58,619 nucleotides of DNA from Phormidesmidales cyanobacterium (GTDB lineage: Bacteria; Cyanobacteriota; Cyanobacteriia; Phormidesmidales; Phormidesmidaceae). The notes below the pieces were generated by a model. It ran no database searches, was not told the DNA's origin, and saw only the letters and a program-made list of their open reading frames with translations. The position numbers and the translations under genes were made by a program. The stretch covers positions 1 to 58,619 of the forward strand of contig JBBQAC010000001.1 of NCBI GenBank assembly GCA_038315915.1, in the 5' to 3' direction. Below, in pieces: positions 22,093 through 27,309 of the stretch; within the stretch, counting starts at the first letter, position 1, and the number at the start of each line of letters is the position of its first letter.

Positions 22093-22320
22093 TTGTCTAA
22101 GCAAGATTTGATTGAAATGGAAGGGACGATCACTGAATCGCTTCCAAACGCTATGTTTAGAGTGGATCTCGATAACGGGTTCAACGTGCTTGCCCATATT
22201 TCGGGTAAGATTCGACGGAACTATATCAAGATTTTACCGGGCGATCGCGTCAAGGTAGAGCTGACTCCCTATGACCTGACTAAAGGCCGTATTACCTATC
22301 GCTTAAAGAAGCCGCGCTAG
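22093..22320 (+). CDS. infA: Translation initiation factor IF-1
   Basis: LPNAMFRV...AHISGKIR...GRITYR; TTG start. Confidence 0.97.
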
Positions 22321-22409
22321 ATTGTCTGCGTAGGCGAAAATATTATTTATGCCCCTGACCTTGATGCTGACTTACCGGCGCTAGGGCACAAGTTGCACCG
22401 AATGCATAT

Positions 22410-22638
22410 TTATCGATCGTAAAGTTCGTCTCGATGGGTAGGTACTAGATCGGTGATAGCTAAAGGGTGGTCTAGCGTTTGCTGAATGAAGTCTGCGCTA
22501 TCGTCAGCAGGTGTAGCCTTGCTGTGACTCACCAAGATGACCTTTATGCTTGCTTGTTTTTCCAAAAGCACTCTTATACTCGTCGGGAATGGCGATTTTG
22601 CCATCTTCTACTTTTGCTTCAAATTCTGCTGTAAACAC
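22410..22638 (-). pseudogene. Frameshifted small antitoxin-like gene
   Basis: MFTAEFEAKVEDGKIAIPDEYKSAFGK (GTG 22638) continues after a 1-nt shift in the short A-run near 22557-22561 as QASIKVILV...DFIQQTLDHPL...RDELYDR*. Confidence 0.45.
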
Positions 22639-22727
22639 GCTTGAGCCTCAATGCTTTCTGGGTGAGCGATCGCAACGTCTTTCTTCTAAGCGGTTAGTAC
22701 ATTTTACGATAGTTTCTTCAGGCTGTA

Positions 22728-23369
22728 TTAGGCCGCTTTAGCAGTTTCGGCATACTGCCAGTAAGCAATGCTGCCTTTGTCATCGGGAATGACCAGGCCG
22801 AACCATTCTAGGCGCTGGAGGTTTTCGGTAATGGCGTCCAGTTTATTTTTGGTGATGCGGCCTTTGAATTGGGCGGCGATTTGTTTGGCGCTCCATTCGC
22901 CGGGGGTGGTGCGCAGGAGGTCGCGGATGGCGGCGAGCTGTTCTTTAGGTTTGGTGGGCCATTTTTGCTGCTCTACGGGTTCGATGATGGGTGCTTCGGT
23001 GGGGGTGATGCCTGCGAGGGTAGGTTGGTCAATGGCTTCGGTGGGGGTCTGCCCTGGATTTTGATAGTCGGGGCGGAGCCAGCGAATGAGGCCGTTGCGT
23101 TCTTCTTCGGCGCGTTCGGCGTTGAGGGCAACGAGGTTTTCGAGGATTTGTTCGTCGGTGATGGTGTGGGGCCAGCCGTAGGCGTCGAGGACTGCGGCAT
23201 CTAGGTCGTCGTGGATTTGTTTGAGGGTGGAGACGAGGGCTTTGTTGTTGTAGTCGCGGTCGGCGTCGGTGAAGGGTTCGCCTGCGCGGAGTTTTTCGAG
23301 CAGGTTGTACATGCCGGTGATGGTGATGTCGGGGTGGGCGGCTTGGACTTGTTTGCGGTGAGTGTCGAG
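22728..23369 (-). pseudogene. C-terminal remnant of MmeI-like (Type IIG/IIL) restriction-modification enzyme
   Basis: LDTHRKQVQAAHPDITITGMYNLLEKLR...IHDDLDAAVLDAYGWP...LVALNAERAEEE..GLIRWLRPDYQNP resembles the C-terminus of these fused MTase/REases; no methyltransferase motifs, begins abruptly at a composition boundary. Confidence 0.8.
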
Positions 23370-23425
23370 ATACCTAAACAACTTACAGCTTCTTCGTTCG
23401 ATGGTTCAATAAATATGGAAGTCTC

Positions 23426-24034
23426 TCAACAAGTTGAATAGAGAACAAAGATGAAAGGTGGTATAACGATGACGAATAGAGAGTATAGCCAATAGTTCAC
23501 AAAAAAGGATCTTGCTTTTATCCAGAAACATCTCAGTGGACTTAATCGAAAATCCTTCCTATGTTGTATTTGAAATTCCAAATAGTCTTCAGGCTCGTGA
23601 TTCTCTGGGCATTCTTCGATTATCTCAGAGTACCGACGCTGTATATTATCCACCCCATCGCCTAAACTCTCAGGAGTGCGATTTATTGCTATTAAAACTT
23701 CTAACTCTGAATACAGAGATGAGATTTTAATGGCGTTCGTGTGCATTTTCTCTGACTTTCCTGCATAGTTATTGGCACCTTCTAATAGACTCAATACTAG
23801 GATAAATACGGACAGGGTAAGCGATATTACCGTATATAGATTGTTTGTCTTTGGGCAAGATGTAGTATCAAGAACAGCCTGAATGACGGGTATGGATATC
23901 CCGTAAACAGATAGCACGGATATACTGAATATAGATACTTGTTGCCTTCTCTTTAGCCTTCTGTATGCGTTAAATCTCGAACCTTTCGTTTTCCAAAGCC
24001 TGAATTTGAGAGAATTAACATAGTCGTCTAACAT
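23426..24034 (-). CDS. SLATT-domain (SLATT_5-like) transmembrane effector
   Basis: N-terminal LWKTKGSRFNAYRRL, two hydrophobic helices (SIFSISVLSVYGISIPVI; VISLTLSVFILVLSLL), ENHEPEDY, third C-terminal TM helix. Confidence 0.8.
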   Translation of the reverse strand: MLDDYVNSLKFRLWKTKGSRFNAYRRLKRRQQVSIFSISVLSVYGISIPVIQAVLDTTSCPKTNNLYTVISLTLSVFILVLSLLEGANNYAGKSEKMHTNAIKISSLYSELEVLIAINRTPESLGDGVDNIQRRYSEIIEECPENHEPEDYLEFQIQHRKDFRLSPLRCFWIKARSFFVNYWLYSLFVIVIPPFIFVLYSTC

Positions 24035-24059
24035 ACTAAAATTAAAACCATCCAGAATA

Positions 24060-24226
24060 GCAGGTCATCTGTAGAGTCATTAGCAATCGCTTCGAAGGCT
24101 AGTCCGAAGCTCCAATCACTTGGCAGTGGTTGGCCTCACTTAAGAGTTTAGTTACAGCCGCTTCTTAGAAGTTTTATCTCCAAGAAGGTCTTATTCAGCA
24201 TTAGCATGACAAAGAGATGACCTGCC
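24060..24226 (-). ncRNA. Putative RT-associated structured ncRNA
   Basis: Perfect 11-bp terminal inverted repeat (24060-24070 / 24215-24225) enclosing three hairpins (24089-24110, 24112-24133, 24161-24187); fills most of the 227-nt RT-SLATT gap. Confidence 0.7.
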
Positions 24227-24232
24227 GCACTT

Positions 24233-24241
24233 ATGGTAGCA
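24233..24241 (-). promoter_or_regulatory. Extended -10 promoter for the ncRNA/SLATT transcript
   Basis: TG-C-TACCAT on minus strand; predicted +1 at about 24226/24225, the first base of the terminal stem. Confidence 0.5.
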
Positions 24242-24261
24242 TATACTTTTTGGTTTATAGT

Positions 24262-25692
24262 TTACGCCAGAGGATATATATTCCTCTCATCATTCTCTAG
24301 CTCTGATATCTCTCTATACTGGCAGTTAGTAAATAATGCTTCTATTTGTTTGGGAGTGTACTCTTTCTTCTTCTCTATCTCTCCTTTGCTTATTAGATAG
24401 TCTCGTTTTTGCTGTACTGTTTTATACCTCTTATAGTCATGAATATAACCGCTGTCAGGGCTATGTTTCGACTCATAAAAAGCCCTCGATAGTTTCTTTA
24501 AATTGCCCGGAGAGCCATCAGGAAAGTCTTTTAATCTTTTGAAAAATCTATCGATGCATCTATCTATCCTGTGCAATACAGACAAATCGTTTATCTCACT
24601 ATAGTAAAAGATCCAACCATATCTTCTATCTTCACTGACTGCACCCGTTATTTTTAGATTAAGTTCTCTTACCAAAATTGACTGTCTTTCTTCCTTTGTG
24701 AGTAGCTTATCCTTGTCTATCGTATACCGCCTTCTCTTTGAGTAGGCAGTAAACTTAGAGGCTATACCCTCTATATACCTTTCAATACTGGACTCGCTTA
24801 CTGAAACTAATCCGTTTGGTTTAAAGTAATAGCCAAGATACTTAAACCCGTCACTACTATCTCCAGAGAATGTTTTTTCTTTATCATGAAGCGTAAGATT
24901 AAAGCGCCTGCTTTCTATTTCTTCCTTCATCTTCTCCTGAATGGTTTCACGTTCCAGGACATCGCAGACAATTAAAATATCATCAATGTATCTGAAATAG
25001 TGCCCTCCTTGCCTTTTCATTACTTCATCAAAATCAGATAGATATATGGAAGCGAGTATGTTGGATATAGCTAAACCCTGAGGTATTCCTTTCGCGTTCG
25101 ACTCATACTTCTTTAGGTCGGCTTTCCTGTAGCCCTTTGGCATGATAGGGGACTCGACTGCTTTCCTTATCAGAGCTAATATTTTTTTTGATTTTATTCT
25201 CCTACCTATTCTCTCGAAAAGTATGTGTCGGTCGATAGAATCATAAAAGCTCTTAATATCACCGTATATAATTGATATTTCAGTCCCTTCTTTAGAAGCC
25301 ATGCAACTGTTGACTTCTTGTATATAGTTCCTAGAAGTTTTCCTTCTGACATACTCTGGAAATATCTCAAATAATGTCTCTTTCAATTGGCATAGAACTA
25401 TCCTGTCACGCACTGTAGGTATGCTTATGACGCGAGGTTCTTTACCTCTACCTTTTAGCTTTAGGAATTCTAAATAGGGAGAAAATTTATATGTTCCCCT
25501 CAGACACTTCTTGCTAATTACTTTGATATTTTCATTTAAGTTTTTCTCGAAACCACTTGGATCAGCCCTGTCCACACCTTTTGTATTTTTCTGCCTTACT
25601 TTTCTGCAAAATCCCTCTTGCAAGCTTTGCTGGGAAAAATTCTTTCTAAAAATTTGAGAAGGAAAGCTTTTCAGGCTAGTAGGTCTTTGCAT
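24262..25692 (-). CDS. Defence-associated reverse transcriptase (UG/DRT type, DRT10/UG17-like)
   Basis: RVISIPTVRDR, GDIKSFYDSI, GIPQGLAISNILASIYL, catalytic YIDD, FKYLGY, C-terminal LNLKITG...YGWIFYYSEIND; no intron maturase/endonuclease domain. ATG 25692 (ORF extends to TTG 25716). RT call is firm, subfamily is tentative. Confidence 0.9.
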   Translation of the reverse strand: MQRPTSLKSFPSQIFRKNFSQQSLQEGFCRKVRQKNTKGVDRADPSGFEKNLNENIKVISKKCLRGTYKFSPYLEFLKLKGRGKEPRVISIPTVRDRIVLCQLKETLFEIFPEYVRRKTSRNYIQEVNSCMASKEGTEISIIYGDIKSFYDSIDRHILFERIGRRIKSKKILALIRKAVESPIMPKGYRKADLKKYESNAKGIPQGLAISNILASIYLSDFDEVMKRQGGHYFRYIDDILIVCDVLERETIQEKMKEEIESRRFNLTLHDKEKTFSGDSSDGFKYLGYYFKPNGLVSVSESSIERYIEGIASKFTAYSKRRRYTIDKDKLLTKEERQSILVRELNLKITGAVSEDRRYGWIFYYSEINDLSVLHRIDRCIDRFFKRLKDFPDGSPGNLKKLSRAFYESKHSPDSGYIHDYKRYKTVQQKRDYLISKGEIEKKKEYTPKQIEALFTNCQYREISELENDERNIYPLA

Positions 25693-25792
25693 TTTGTCTG
25701 TAGCTGATGTGTGCAACCGATGTTACCGATATTTTTGAGATTCATCAATTCATTTTTCTGTAATGCTTGCGCAATCAACCTAAATATACCTA

Positions 25793-26029
25793 TCAAGAGA
25801 TCAGCGAACTGCGTCGAAGGTAGGGTGCCATTTTCTCGCCGCTGTAGAACTTAATATCCTTATCAAAGCAGTAAGCGCCCACGACACTTCCCTTTGGCGG
25901 TGGCCCTTCTACACCGACCACCCCACACAAGTCGATAAAAAAGCCCTGATAGTTCGCCCGCTCGTTGCTCTCGGAGCCCAGCCGCTTACCCAAAAACTGT
26001 TCGACCCGCTGCTGATCTGCCCTATCCAT
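25793..26029 (-). pseudogene. N-terminal remnant of MmeI-like restriction-modification enzyme
   Basis: VEQFLGKRLGSESNERANYQGFFIDLCGVVGVEGPP...YCFDKDIKF resembles the MmeI-type N-terminus (ERANYQ.F...LC..LGV), then stops. Confidence 0.7.
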
Positions 26030-26178
26030 CCATGCCCTCGTGCGATCGCCTAGCCATCGGGTTACTCCCGTTAGCCCTCACTATTCCCATAGTAGCCACG
26101 TCTGTCAGTGACCCCGCCCCAAAAGTTTCTTTGGGAATCGCTACAGACTACTTACATAGCAGCTCACACTGGTCAGGG

Positions 26179-26409
26179 AAGCGATCGCACTTCTCCTGCA
26201 CCAGCGTGGGCTTTTTTGTGAAGCGATCGCACTTCTCCCAGCGCAACGCCCACTTCTCTCAAAATAGCCAACACTGTTTGCGCAGTAGCGCCCATTTCTC
26301 GCAAAGCTGCTCCCACTGCCTACAAAGCAACTCCCCATTCTCGCGGAGTAACAAATACTTCTCGCTTAACCGTAAATGTACGCCTAGCAACAGCGAACAG
26401 TTTTCATCA
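26179..26409. repeat. Degenerate 21-nt tandem repeat (about 11 units)
   Basis: AAGCGATCGCACTTCTCC at 26179 and 26221; CACTTCTC/CATTTCTC/CACTG recur at 21-nt spacing. Confidence 0.55.
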
Positions 26410-26852
26410 TCGGCAAAAATCTTGTAATTATGCTGAGACTGCCCTGTATTTTTTATTCGTCGCTACGGGCATAGATTATCTGCCGAATATCCTCGGGGTG
26501 CTCTAGCAAAATGTGGCGGAGCGATCGCCTCCCCCCACTCCCAACAGGCACCAGTTCAGGCAATGCTATTCTCCCTGTGTACGCAGTGTTAGAGGCGAGC
26601 GATCGGTGTTGATTGCCCCCAACGCCGGTAGCGGCTAAATTTTTCAAGGCGGTTATGCCATCGCGCAGAATCCCACAGTGGTTGCGACACCACAGTGGTT
26701 GCGGGTGTGCGATCGCATAAGCAATAGCGTATCAGCCCCTTTCCAAAGGCGTCAACTATCTAGCGCGAAGTCTCGATAAGGGCAAATGGAGCAGTTCAAT
26801 GATTATCTGCACAGTCGGTTAAAATTAGTACATCGGTTTTATTAGGCTATTT

Positions 26853-27083
26853 ATGGAACAGATTGCTAAGCTTCATATTCAAAAGCTACCTGAAGGCTTC
26901 TACTTGGCAACCTCAGACGATGTACCTGGATTAGTTGCACAGGGGCGTACTGTAGCCGAAACCATAGAGATTGCTCGCGACGTTACTAAAAAGCTGCTAG
27001 AAGCGCAAGCCGAACGGCAGAGTTCAATCAAGCTAGTCGATATTGAAGAAGCGTTTGAATATCCCTTGGTTATAGGCATCTAG
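26853..27083 (+). CDS. hicB: HicB-like antitoxin (DUF1902-type)
   Basis: YLATSDDVPGLVAQGRTVAETIEIARDV. Confidence 0.8.
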   Translation: MEQIAKLHIQKLPEGFYLATSDDVPGLVAQGRTVAETIEIARDVTKKLLEAQAERQSSIKLVDIEEAFEYPLVIGI

Positions 27084-27084
27084 T

Positions 27085-27309
27085 ATGGGTCGTTTGGCAG
27101 GGTTTAAATATAGAAAAATCGTCAAACGTCTCAAGCAGCTAGGATTTCAATTTGACCGTCAAGCTGCCGGTAGCCACGAGATCTGGCATAATCCCGCCAC
27201 CAAGCGATTTACAACAATACCAAATCATCCTGGTGATATGCCTGAAGGGACGCTCAGAGCAATCCTCAAACAGGCTTCTATCTCACCAGAAGAATTCTTA
27301 GATACTTGA
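27085..27309 (+). CDS. hicA: HicA family mRNA interferase toxin
   Basis: GFQFDRQAAGSHEIW...TTIPNHPGDMPEGTLRAILKQA. Confidence 0.9.
   Translation: MGRLAGFKYRKIVKRLKQLGFQFDRQAAGSHEIWHNPATKRFTTIPNHPGDMPEGTLRAILKQASISPEEFLDT

Follow-up and report, generated by a model that had tools for sequence, protein, structure and literature searches.

A probable DRT10 cassette of reverse transcriptase, non-coding RNA and SLATT protein lodged in a broken type IIG restriction-modification gene of a cyanobacterium

What might an intact reverse transcriptase (RT), encoded next to a structured RNA and a membrane protein, be doing in a cyanobacterium, and how did it come to lie there? The question is raised by a cassette (positions 23,370 to 25,792) within a stretch of 58,619 nucleotides of a Phormidesmidales cyanobacterium (assembly GCA_038315915.1, contig JBBQAC010000001.1, positions 1 to 58,619 of the forward strand; hereafter the window), in which a preliminary description, made from the letters alone, had seen a three-part anti-phage system. 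We consider that this cassette is very probably a DRT10 system, the family also named UG17 (PMC12632851), arranged in the order RT, non-coding RNA (ncRNA) and SLATT protein; judging from sequence and family likeness, it would likely serve in phage defense through Tyr473-primed copying of one RNA loop (loop B) into repeat DNA and a SLATT trigger. As the system and its gene order have already been published, the cassette itself will hardly surprise specialists. What is new here is the prediction of its repeat, a host family without SbcB and a cargo slot inside a type IIG gene.

All three parts are present, co-directional and located where they had first been read, namely an RT gene, a 227-nucleotide gap (24035-24261) that folds as RNA and the gene of a small SLATT protein (Table 1). 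The RT frame is open from an ATG at 25692 (476 amino acids) or a TTG at 25716 (484 amino acids) to a stop at 24262 and contains, as anticipated, the motifs PQG at 204, YIDD at 235-238 and YLG at 285. The PADLOC profile RT_UG17 matches it with 458 bits over positions 4-429 of 429, the next profile reaching 153 bits. Retron RTs are characterized by NAxxH and VTG motifs; both are absent from this sequence, Pfam recognized RVT_1 only, and neither a maturase nor an HNH domain was found by Pfam, in agreement with the first inspection. For the DRT10 of Escherichia coli H120, whose RT is WP_000344414.1 (PMC12632851, Table S1), plaque data and cryo-EM structures have been reported, the latter with RT and RNA in a 2:1 complex and Tyr467 as the priming residue (10.64898/2026.10.08.757509). 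The cassette RT is 39% identical to this protein over 461 amino acids, D237/D238 aligning with D232/D233 and Y473 with Y467, and it retains the H120 residues R37, K75, R77, R82, D140, F144, Y145, Q200, D232, D233, K268, R380 and Y467. Alignment and model together place a tyrosine behind a C-terminal helix, as expected of DRT10, the AlphaFold2 model (pLDDT 87.7) showing this helix at 447-470 and residues 473-476 with low confidence. The SLATT-like character ascribed to the downstream protein was borne out by Pfam SLATT_5 (189 bits, cut-off 29.5), NCBIfam SLATT_5 (166 bits) and PADLOC RTasSLATT (155 bits); its three hydrophobic peaks start at residues 33, 66 and 183, and it is 29% identical to the SLATT protein of the locus encoding the H120 RT (L130). 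Both proteins are under purifying selection, the ratio of non-synonymous to synonymous substitution rates (dN/dS) relative to a close homologous locus, L025, being 0.07 over 344 codons for the RT and 0.03 for SLATT, with dS saturated for the latter.

Table 1. Positions, in the window, of the cassette parts and of the gene remnants around them
Feature	Position	Strand	Remarks
5' remnant of MmeI-like type IIG restriction-modification gene	25793..26029	-	~227 nt; PADLOC PDLC03627 positions 3-61 of 1136
DRT10 (UG17) RT	24262..25692	-	476 amino acids; catalytic D145, D237, D238; predicted priming residue Y473
Possible extended -10 promoter (TGn-TAnnnT) for ncRNA and SLATT	24233..24241	-	read by eye
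DRT10 ncRNA core, six stems	24059..24226	-	168 nt; in silico fold
ncRNA SL1			closing stem, 12 bp
ncRNA SL2	24214-24190	-
ncRNA SL3	24187-24161	-
ncRNA loop A	24158-24147	-	12 nt
ncRNA SL4	24146-24135	-
ncRNA SL5	24133-24112	-
ncRNA SL6	24110-24089	-
ncRNA loop B	24087-24071	-	17 nt
Predicted A-B-A' template UG-CUAA-UG in loop B	24078..24085	-	inferred from loop geometry; product (TTAGCA)n
SLATT_5 membrane protein, presumed effector	23426..24034	-	202 amino acids; three predicted transmembrane segments
3' remnant of MmeI-like gene	22728..23369	-	from ~nt 2815, last ~635 bases; PDLC03627 positions 939-1130

A 48-sequence RT alignment was used to fetch 100 loci (the best 80 of at least 533 from metagenomes and 20 from viral contigs), SLATT genes being called with a profile seeded from the window's own protein. 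Ninety-six of these loci have an RT scoring at least 270 bits: 55 in the order RT-SLATT, 25 in the order SLATT-RT, 11 without SLATT but cut within 900 nucleotides, and five without it despite both flanks, which gives a SLATT linkage in 80 of the 85 informative loci. In a phylogenetic tree, the cassette RT falls with the H120 RT in a 45-row clade (support 99) whose other members comprise 33 RT-SLATT loci, three without a called SLATT and seven without context, and not a single SLATT-RT locus. Both the expected co-occurrence with SLATT and a placement of the RT apart from retrons and group II introns held. The suggestion that a cyanobacterial cassette in this order may be an uncharacterized variant found no support: an RT-SLATT order with a gap of ~200 bp has been described and the H120 locus assigned to subtype UG17-B (10.64898/2026.04.29.721553), and the H120 RT likewise precedes its SLATT gene by 194 nucleotides. 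By its gene order, its gap of 227 nucleotides and its clade, the cassette agrees with UG17-B.

Regarding the distribution of such RTs, a search of the phylum (E 1e-40) gave matches in 17 of 401 genomes, only two of them full-length UG17, and these same two were recovered in the class search (2 of 401 genomes); a DRT10 RT was found in 4 of 173 genomes in the order search, and a plasmid search with the RT returned 8 records at 30-34% identity. A scan of genome contigs with a single RT gave five matches, all distant unrelated RTs, and was discarded. The word 'cyanobacteria' is absent from the main texts of 10.64898/2026.04.29.721553, PMC12632851 and PMC9226505, while the supplements of the bioRxiv preprints may list cyanobacterial members, and the supplements of PMC12632851 show, as far as a point within Table S4, no DRT10 row under cyanobacterial name stems; a cyanobacterial DRT10 host seems uncovered in the literature searched. 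The RT represents a divergent branch, sharing 47-48% identity with the closest proteins beyond the small cluster to which it belongs, and the cassette is a test case for this branch with a specific and checkable repeat prediction.

The claim that the gap folds into a multi-hairpin RNA proved well founded in silico. A 236-nucleotide stretch over the gap folds at -70 kcal/mol (z -4.12, equaled by 0 of 200 shuffles) and the 168-nucleotide core of six stems reaches z -5.45; among ten tiled 168-nucleotide windows of the cassette, the one overlapping the RNA scores -3.07, one in the RT -2.68 and the other eight between -0.91 and +0.91. Pair probabilities are mostly 0.8-1.0 in SL1 and SL3-SL6 (the lowest being 0.61) and only 0.16-0.37 in SL2. 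A closing stem, further stem-loops and two loops are thus predicted, and loops A and B each come after a stem of the same base sequence, a pseudo-symmetry as reported for DRT10 RNA (10.64898/2026.06.29.735271). In the RNA of L025, 96 of 98 paired cells are kept, the changes being one-sided in five cases and two-sided in one. Run on 87 sources, a model built from these two RNAs gave 5 matches, namely the two RNAs themselves and the intergenic RNAs of L007, L057 and L095, and it did not reach the H120 RNA in L130. An Rfam scan of the cassette region gave no real match. A two-hexamer promoter and terminator scan yielded nothing above chance and no ncRNA promoter was called; motifs resembling the TGn-TAnnnT of Table 1 lie before SL1 in L007, L055 and L067.

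DRT10 systems are described as making protein-primed tandem-repeat single-stranded DNA (PMC12632851), and deletion of SLATT abolishes defense in every DRT10 reported as tested, H120 included (PMC12632851; 10.64898/2026.10.08.757509). Taking from this family literature that RT and RNA assemble 2:1, that the protein serves as primer, that repeats are added and that none of the three parts is dispensable, we propose that the six-stem RNA would be bound by a pair of RT molecules, one of which would use its Tyr473 as primer to copy the loop B template repeatedly into (TTAGCA)n single-stranded DNA. Synthesis would begin at G24078 and end at U24085, the DNA end then re-pairing with the downstream UG, and the shorter loop A would yield short abortive products only. 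A change in the level of repeat DNA at the time of infection would trigger SLATT, leading to cell arrest or death.

Among known systems, H120 shares with the cassette its clade, its RT-ncRNA-SLATT order and loops of 12 and 17 nucleotides (H120 loops 1 and 2). It differs by five stems instead of six, by its template sequence and by a repeat unit inferred to be of 5 nucleotides versus the 6 predicted here; that H120 is the Eco2 system with a 5-nucleotide unit is what we infer from the supplement text of PMC12632851. The settings differ as well, since H120, in E. coli, has a phage polarity-suppression gene on one side and an integrase on the other (L130), whereas the cassette lies inside a broken type IIG gene of a cyanobacterium whose family has no SbcB match. 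According to the published descriptions (PMC12632851; 10.64898/2026.06.29.735271), Eco1 resembles the cassette in its six stems and 2-nucleotide A/A' (the latter also found in Eco2) and differs in its 8-nucleotide repeat, and Eco1 and Eco3 share with it a pseudo-symmetric RNA with loops A and B and a mobile priming residue placed behind a C-terminal helix. Eco3 has the same 2-nucleotide 5' linker (10.64898/2026.06.29.735271) but an RNA upstream of SLATT, serine priming and a 9-nucleotide repeat (PMC12632851; 10.64898/2026.06.29.735271). The UG17-A of Escherichia sp. E3659 is similarly composed of three parts, with SLATT_5 and a repeat flanked by short direct repeats; unlike the cassette, it has the order ncRNA-SLATT-RT, a 7-nucleotide repeat, a dependence on SbcB and a phage SSB-like trigger (10.64898/2026.04.29.721553).

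The repeat was predicted from geometry. In Eco3, an anchoring purine sits at the base of the last stem, the template opens three bases beyond it, and the first base copied is the eighth before SL1 (10.64898/2026.06.29.735271); H120 likewise starts at the eighth base (10.64898/2026.10.08.757509). Transposed to loop B, this geometry sets the start at G24078 and the +3 base at U24085, hence A = UG, B = CUAA and A' = UG, and by this analogy we regard the exact 6-nucleotide unit TTAGCA as the probable product. The offsets are the same as in H120 loop 2, the initiation position of loop B is a G, and loop B of L025 is identical across the template. An A/A' match of at least 2 nucleotides at anchor +3 is found in all six distinct loops of the nearest loci (13 of 2000 shuffles), a count that includes the query and for which six offsets were tried, and in 6 of 7 other RT-SLATT loops (107 of 2000 shuffles). 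For the H120 clade, a +4 boundary fits 11 of 11 loops, which are related sequences, and +3 only 3 of 11; in loop B of the cassette, +4 gives the same 6-nucleotide unit with a match of 1 nucleotide. As a template, AACU-A-AACU (5-nucleotide unit) was dropped, being located at the border of loop A and SL4, outside the template window. A second copy of the 8-nucleotide template sequence lies at the SL2 tip (24206-24199, minus strand), probably by chance since L025 differs there by one base.

Several points weigh against this prediction or against the wider reading of the cassette. In the cassette RNA, the A/A' match is of 2 nucleotides only; the motif-based anchor rule gave no anchor in 15 of 46 loci, duplicates being merged, and a first automatic search mis-set the anchor of the query RNA, with the enrichment spread over offsets +1 to +5. 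In the minimum-energy fold of the naked RNA, some of the template is taken up by pairing with SL2 (-60.1 versus -58.2 kcal/mol for the open model), and covariation is no better than in shuffles and cannot be shown, as only two sequences were compared. In the RT, Lys319 occupies the position of H120 His313, a residue whose role is to stack against the first base of the loop, and H120 residues R64, R172, L175, T176, T178 and possibly H262 are changed. Moreover, the tree was built with FastTree only, and published accounts disagree on whether DRT10 complementary DNA rises or falls on infection.

The strongest competing explanation keeps an active DRT10 and gives it another product, i.e., a 7-nucleotide CU...CU unit located further into loop B, a 7-nucleotide unit at the start of loop B or the 5-nucleotide AACU-A-AACU; we judge it unlikely, albeit to be taken seriously. 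Alternative short direct repeats do exist in the cassette RNA, the 5' template boundary varies by subclade, as the +4 of the H120 clade illustrates, and the His313 equivalent is altered. However, the CU...CU option would put the DNA end 6 nucleotides from SL1, equivalent to a 2-nucleotide deletion of the 3' linker, and such a deletion abolished the Eco3 product (10.64898/2026.06.29.735271); the option at the loop B start (+1) leaves no 5' linker, the AACU repeat enters SL4 (pair probability ~0.86), and the 6-nucleotide unit follows from both +3 and +4.

A further question is how such a system could be restrained in this host. In E. coli, an exonuclease, SbcB, prevents the DNA of DRT10 from reaching a toxic level. 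UG17-A DRT10 is reported to be lethal in E. coli lacking sbcB (10.64898/2026.04.29.721553), and the H120 system to make sbcB essential (PMC9226505). The C-terminal domain of SbcB (PF08411) was matched in 0 of 173 genomes of the host family, 116 of which are at least 90% complete, the control matching E. coli only. Since this family contains four intact DRT10 loci, the system is tolerated there without SbcB and its brake must differ from that of E. coli; the SbcB arm of the E3659 system cannot be transferred unchanged to a cyanobacterial host. The threshold is likely set by a lower RT output or by a different 3'-5' nuclease, for which exonuclease VII and a DEDDh enzyme, both of which the host has, come into question, its genome encoding the large subunit of exonuclease VII (XseA) and one RNase_T-family domain. 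As the absence of SbcB is common outside enterobacteria, this is not a peculiarity of the host, and a DRT10 in a SbcB-less family makes it possible to address restraint and trigger beyond enterobacteria.

The same facts could be turned around: with UG17-A lethal in sbcB-less E. coli and PF08411 unmatched in the host family, an active copy might be toxic, and the cassette might be a recently silenced or decaying DRT10 carried as passive cargo. Decayed forms are known, in the shape of an orphan SLATT piece and of a low-depth contig that skips the RT (both described below). Among the sequencing runs listed as carrying the cassette there is no RNA run, which carries no weight either way. We nevertheless hold this to be quite improbable, because neither frame is interrupted and every stem is preserved, dN/dS is low for both proteins, the SbcB-less family has three further DRT10 loci that are intact, and near-identical as well as 86% identical copies are present in another sample. 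In the latter, an independent metagenome run (X2), the cassette occurs with 16 differences on two contigs, one crossing the upstream junction, and a second variant, ~86% identical, crosses the downstream junction; as each variant spans one junction, the cassette is not an assembly artefact. In X2, a low-depth contig also joins 24195 to 25917, i.e., the ncRNA start to the 5' remnant, and may represent an RT-deleted variant. The orphan SLATT (genome G829, L159:4727-5577) is 5'-truncated, has 75% DNA identity to that of the cassette and lies beside type IIG 3' remnants; from its sequence, with no RT in the 12-kb stretch, it is a decayed copy of the cassette.

Could the RT and its RNA defend alone, like DRT2 with its hidden repeat-encoded protein or DRT9 with its poly-dA, SLATT being accessory? 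SLATT is indeed accessory in some UG28 and UG3+UG8 loci (PMC9226505), and four UG17 loci encode a different membrane protein. This appears very unlikely for a RT that is UG17, with a Drt2 profile score of 90 bits and the Drt9 profile outside its best 25 PADLOC matches, and for a loop B of 17 nucleotides only, with no poly-U tract, all the more as the DRT10 systems tested in the literature lose defense with SLATT. The preliminary description had given RT, ncRNA and SLATT as the composition of class 2 UG systems, namely UG17/DRT10 and some UG28/DRT9; by profile and clade the former stands, and the same Drt9 ranking and missing poly-U remove the latter. Lastly, the RT could belong to a retron, or to a piece of a group II intron, that landed beside an unrelated SLATT gene. 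This is suggested by the best PDB sequence and fold matches (group II intron and G2L4 RTs, those of DRT2 and DRT9 being returned as well) and by the 147 bits of TIGR04416, but can hardly be entertained, given that 147 is below the TIGR04416 cut-off of 300 and the retron RT model reaches 36 bits versus 235, that Rfam shows no intron or retron match in 22300-26900, that both retron motifs are missing, that the structure rankings are not discriminating and arise by default, no DRT10 entry being among the PDB matches listed (copy to April 2026), and that SLATT linkage is the rule among informative loci.

Turning to how this DRT10 reached its place, its composition sets it apart from the genome. 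The G+C content of the cassette is 0.376 versus 0.531 for the genome, and none of 1628 tiled 2423-nucleotide genome windows is at or below 0.382, so that the AT-richness noticed at first reading was fully verified. The block is also HIP1-free as had been seen by eye (0 sites versus 2.8 expected), which is weak evidence alone because 91 of the 1628 tiled windows have no HIP1 either; the whole window, cyanobacterium-like, contains 59 sites versus 1.7 expected. The cassette is inserted in an MmeI-like type IIG gene, where it stands in for ~2.6 kb of the gene's middle. The same genome has elsewhere an intact 1149-amino-acid paralogue (L160), whose start matches the 5' remnant and to which the 3' remnant is 92% identical.

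This slot was compared in 21 stretches fetched from genome-search matches. Three hold other DRT10 loci without such a remnant, four the gene either whole or broken by insertion sequences or stops, six a 3' remnant only, and eight both ends around four other cargo types. The last eight, all from the same genus (L157, L158, L164-L168 and L170), carry low-GC, HIP1-free cargo: GmrSD_N with HEPN in five genomes (G807, G436, G833, G595, G832), Mrr_cat with DUF6414 (G668), a NotI-family protein with a D12 methylase (G831) and a pentapeptide-repeat protein (G501). For each of the five cargo types, DRT10 included, one 3' junction lies at nucleotides 2788-2815 of the gene around a HIP1 site at 2807-2814, and the 5' junction of the commonest cargo coincides with a further HIP1 (nt 272). 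A link between HIP1 and site-specific recombination has been reported (PMC4390886); the clustering of the junctions may instead reflect a conserved block that starts at ~nt 2743, behind the gene's variable part. The five genomes with the same cargo probably share one origin. A rare insertion likely came first, with homologous recombination at the conserved ends then bringing about its spread. A broader view, which we hold only tentatively and somewhat short of even chances, is that the dead MmeI-like gene could be an exchange platform of cyanobacteria, in which natural transformation would use the two conserved ends to swap entire defense cassettes into any copy, HIP1 would seed the original junctions, and DRT10, as one of these cassettes, would be tuned for a SbcB-less lineage with another nuclease brake and another phage trigger.

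As a site, the slot resembles the enterobacterial immigration control region and hotspot 37, with variable defense-type cargo between conserved flanks (PMC12707154). It differs from them in that its flanks are the two ends of one gene with the middle replaced, in that it occurs at several chromosomal positions, and in that HIP1 sites coincide with, or are close to, many of its junctions. A literature search for an MmeI-like or type IIG cargo slot in cyanobacteria returned no description, the hotspots described in passages of one review being other ones (PMC12707154). The occupants of the slot, which include known defense-type and uncharacterized genes, form a ready list of cyanobacterial defense candidates. 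In another genome (G674, L172:1183-4117), a retron-type RT, whose best PADLOC matches are type XI/XII retron models, lies behind a CHAT-TPR protein and directly upstream of a short 3' remnant of this type IIG gene.

Some of the homologous loci have features of their own. L069, L070, L075 and L081, on metagenome contigs, form a separate UG17 clade (support 100) with a folded DRT10-like RNA after the RT (z -3.9 to -6.7) and, in the place of SLATT, a conserved protein of ~210 amino acids with 3-4 hydrophobic segments. This protein gave no Pfam hit above cut-off, no PADLOC match and only unnamed Atlas clusters, its profile-profile probability with SLATT is 0.6%, and a DRT10 variant with a different effector is possible. 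In L086, L087 and L088, SLATT starts only 11 nucleotides after the UG17 RT, with no space for an RNA between them. L027 and L040 are SLATT-RT loci by call with RTs nested among RT-SLATT loci, possibly an independent change of gene order.

In the vicinity of the cassette, a ribosomal-protein operon stops at an infA-like gene (22093-22320), the broken type IIG locus beginning ~400 nucleotides beyond; rpmJ, rpsM, rpsK and rpoA, which usually come after infA, are not among the open reading frames listed beside the operon end. On the other side, a toxin-antitoxin pair made of a HicB-like protein (DUF1902) and HicA lies at 26853-27309 on the plus strand, ~0.8 kb from the 5' remnant.

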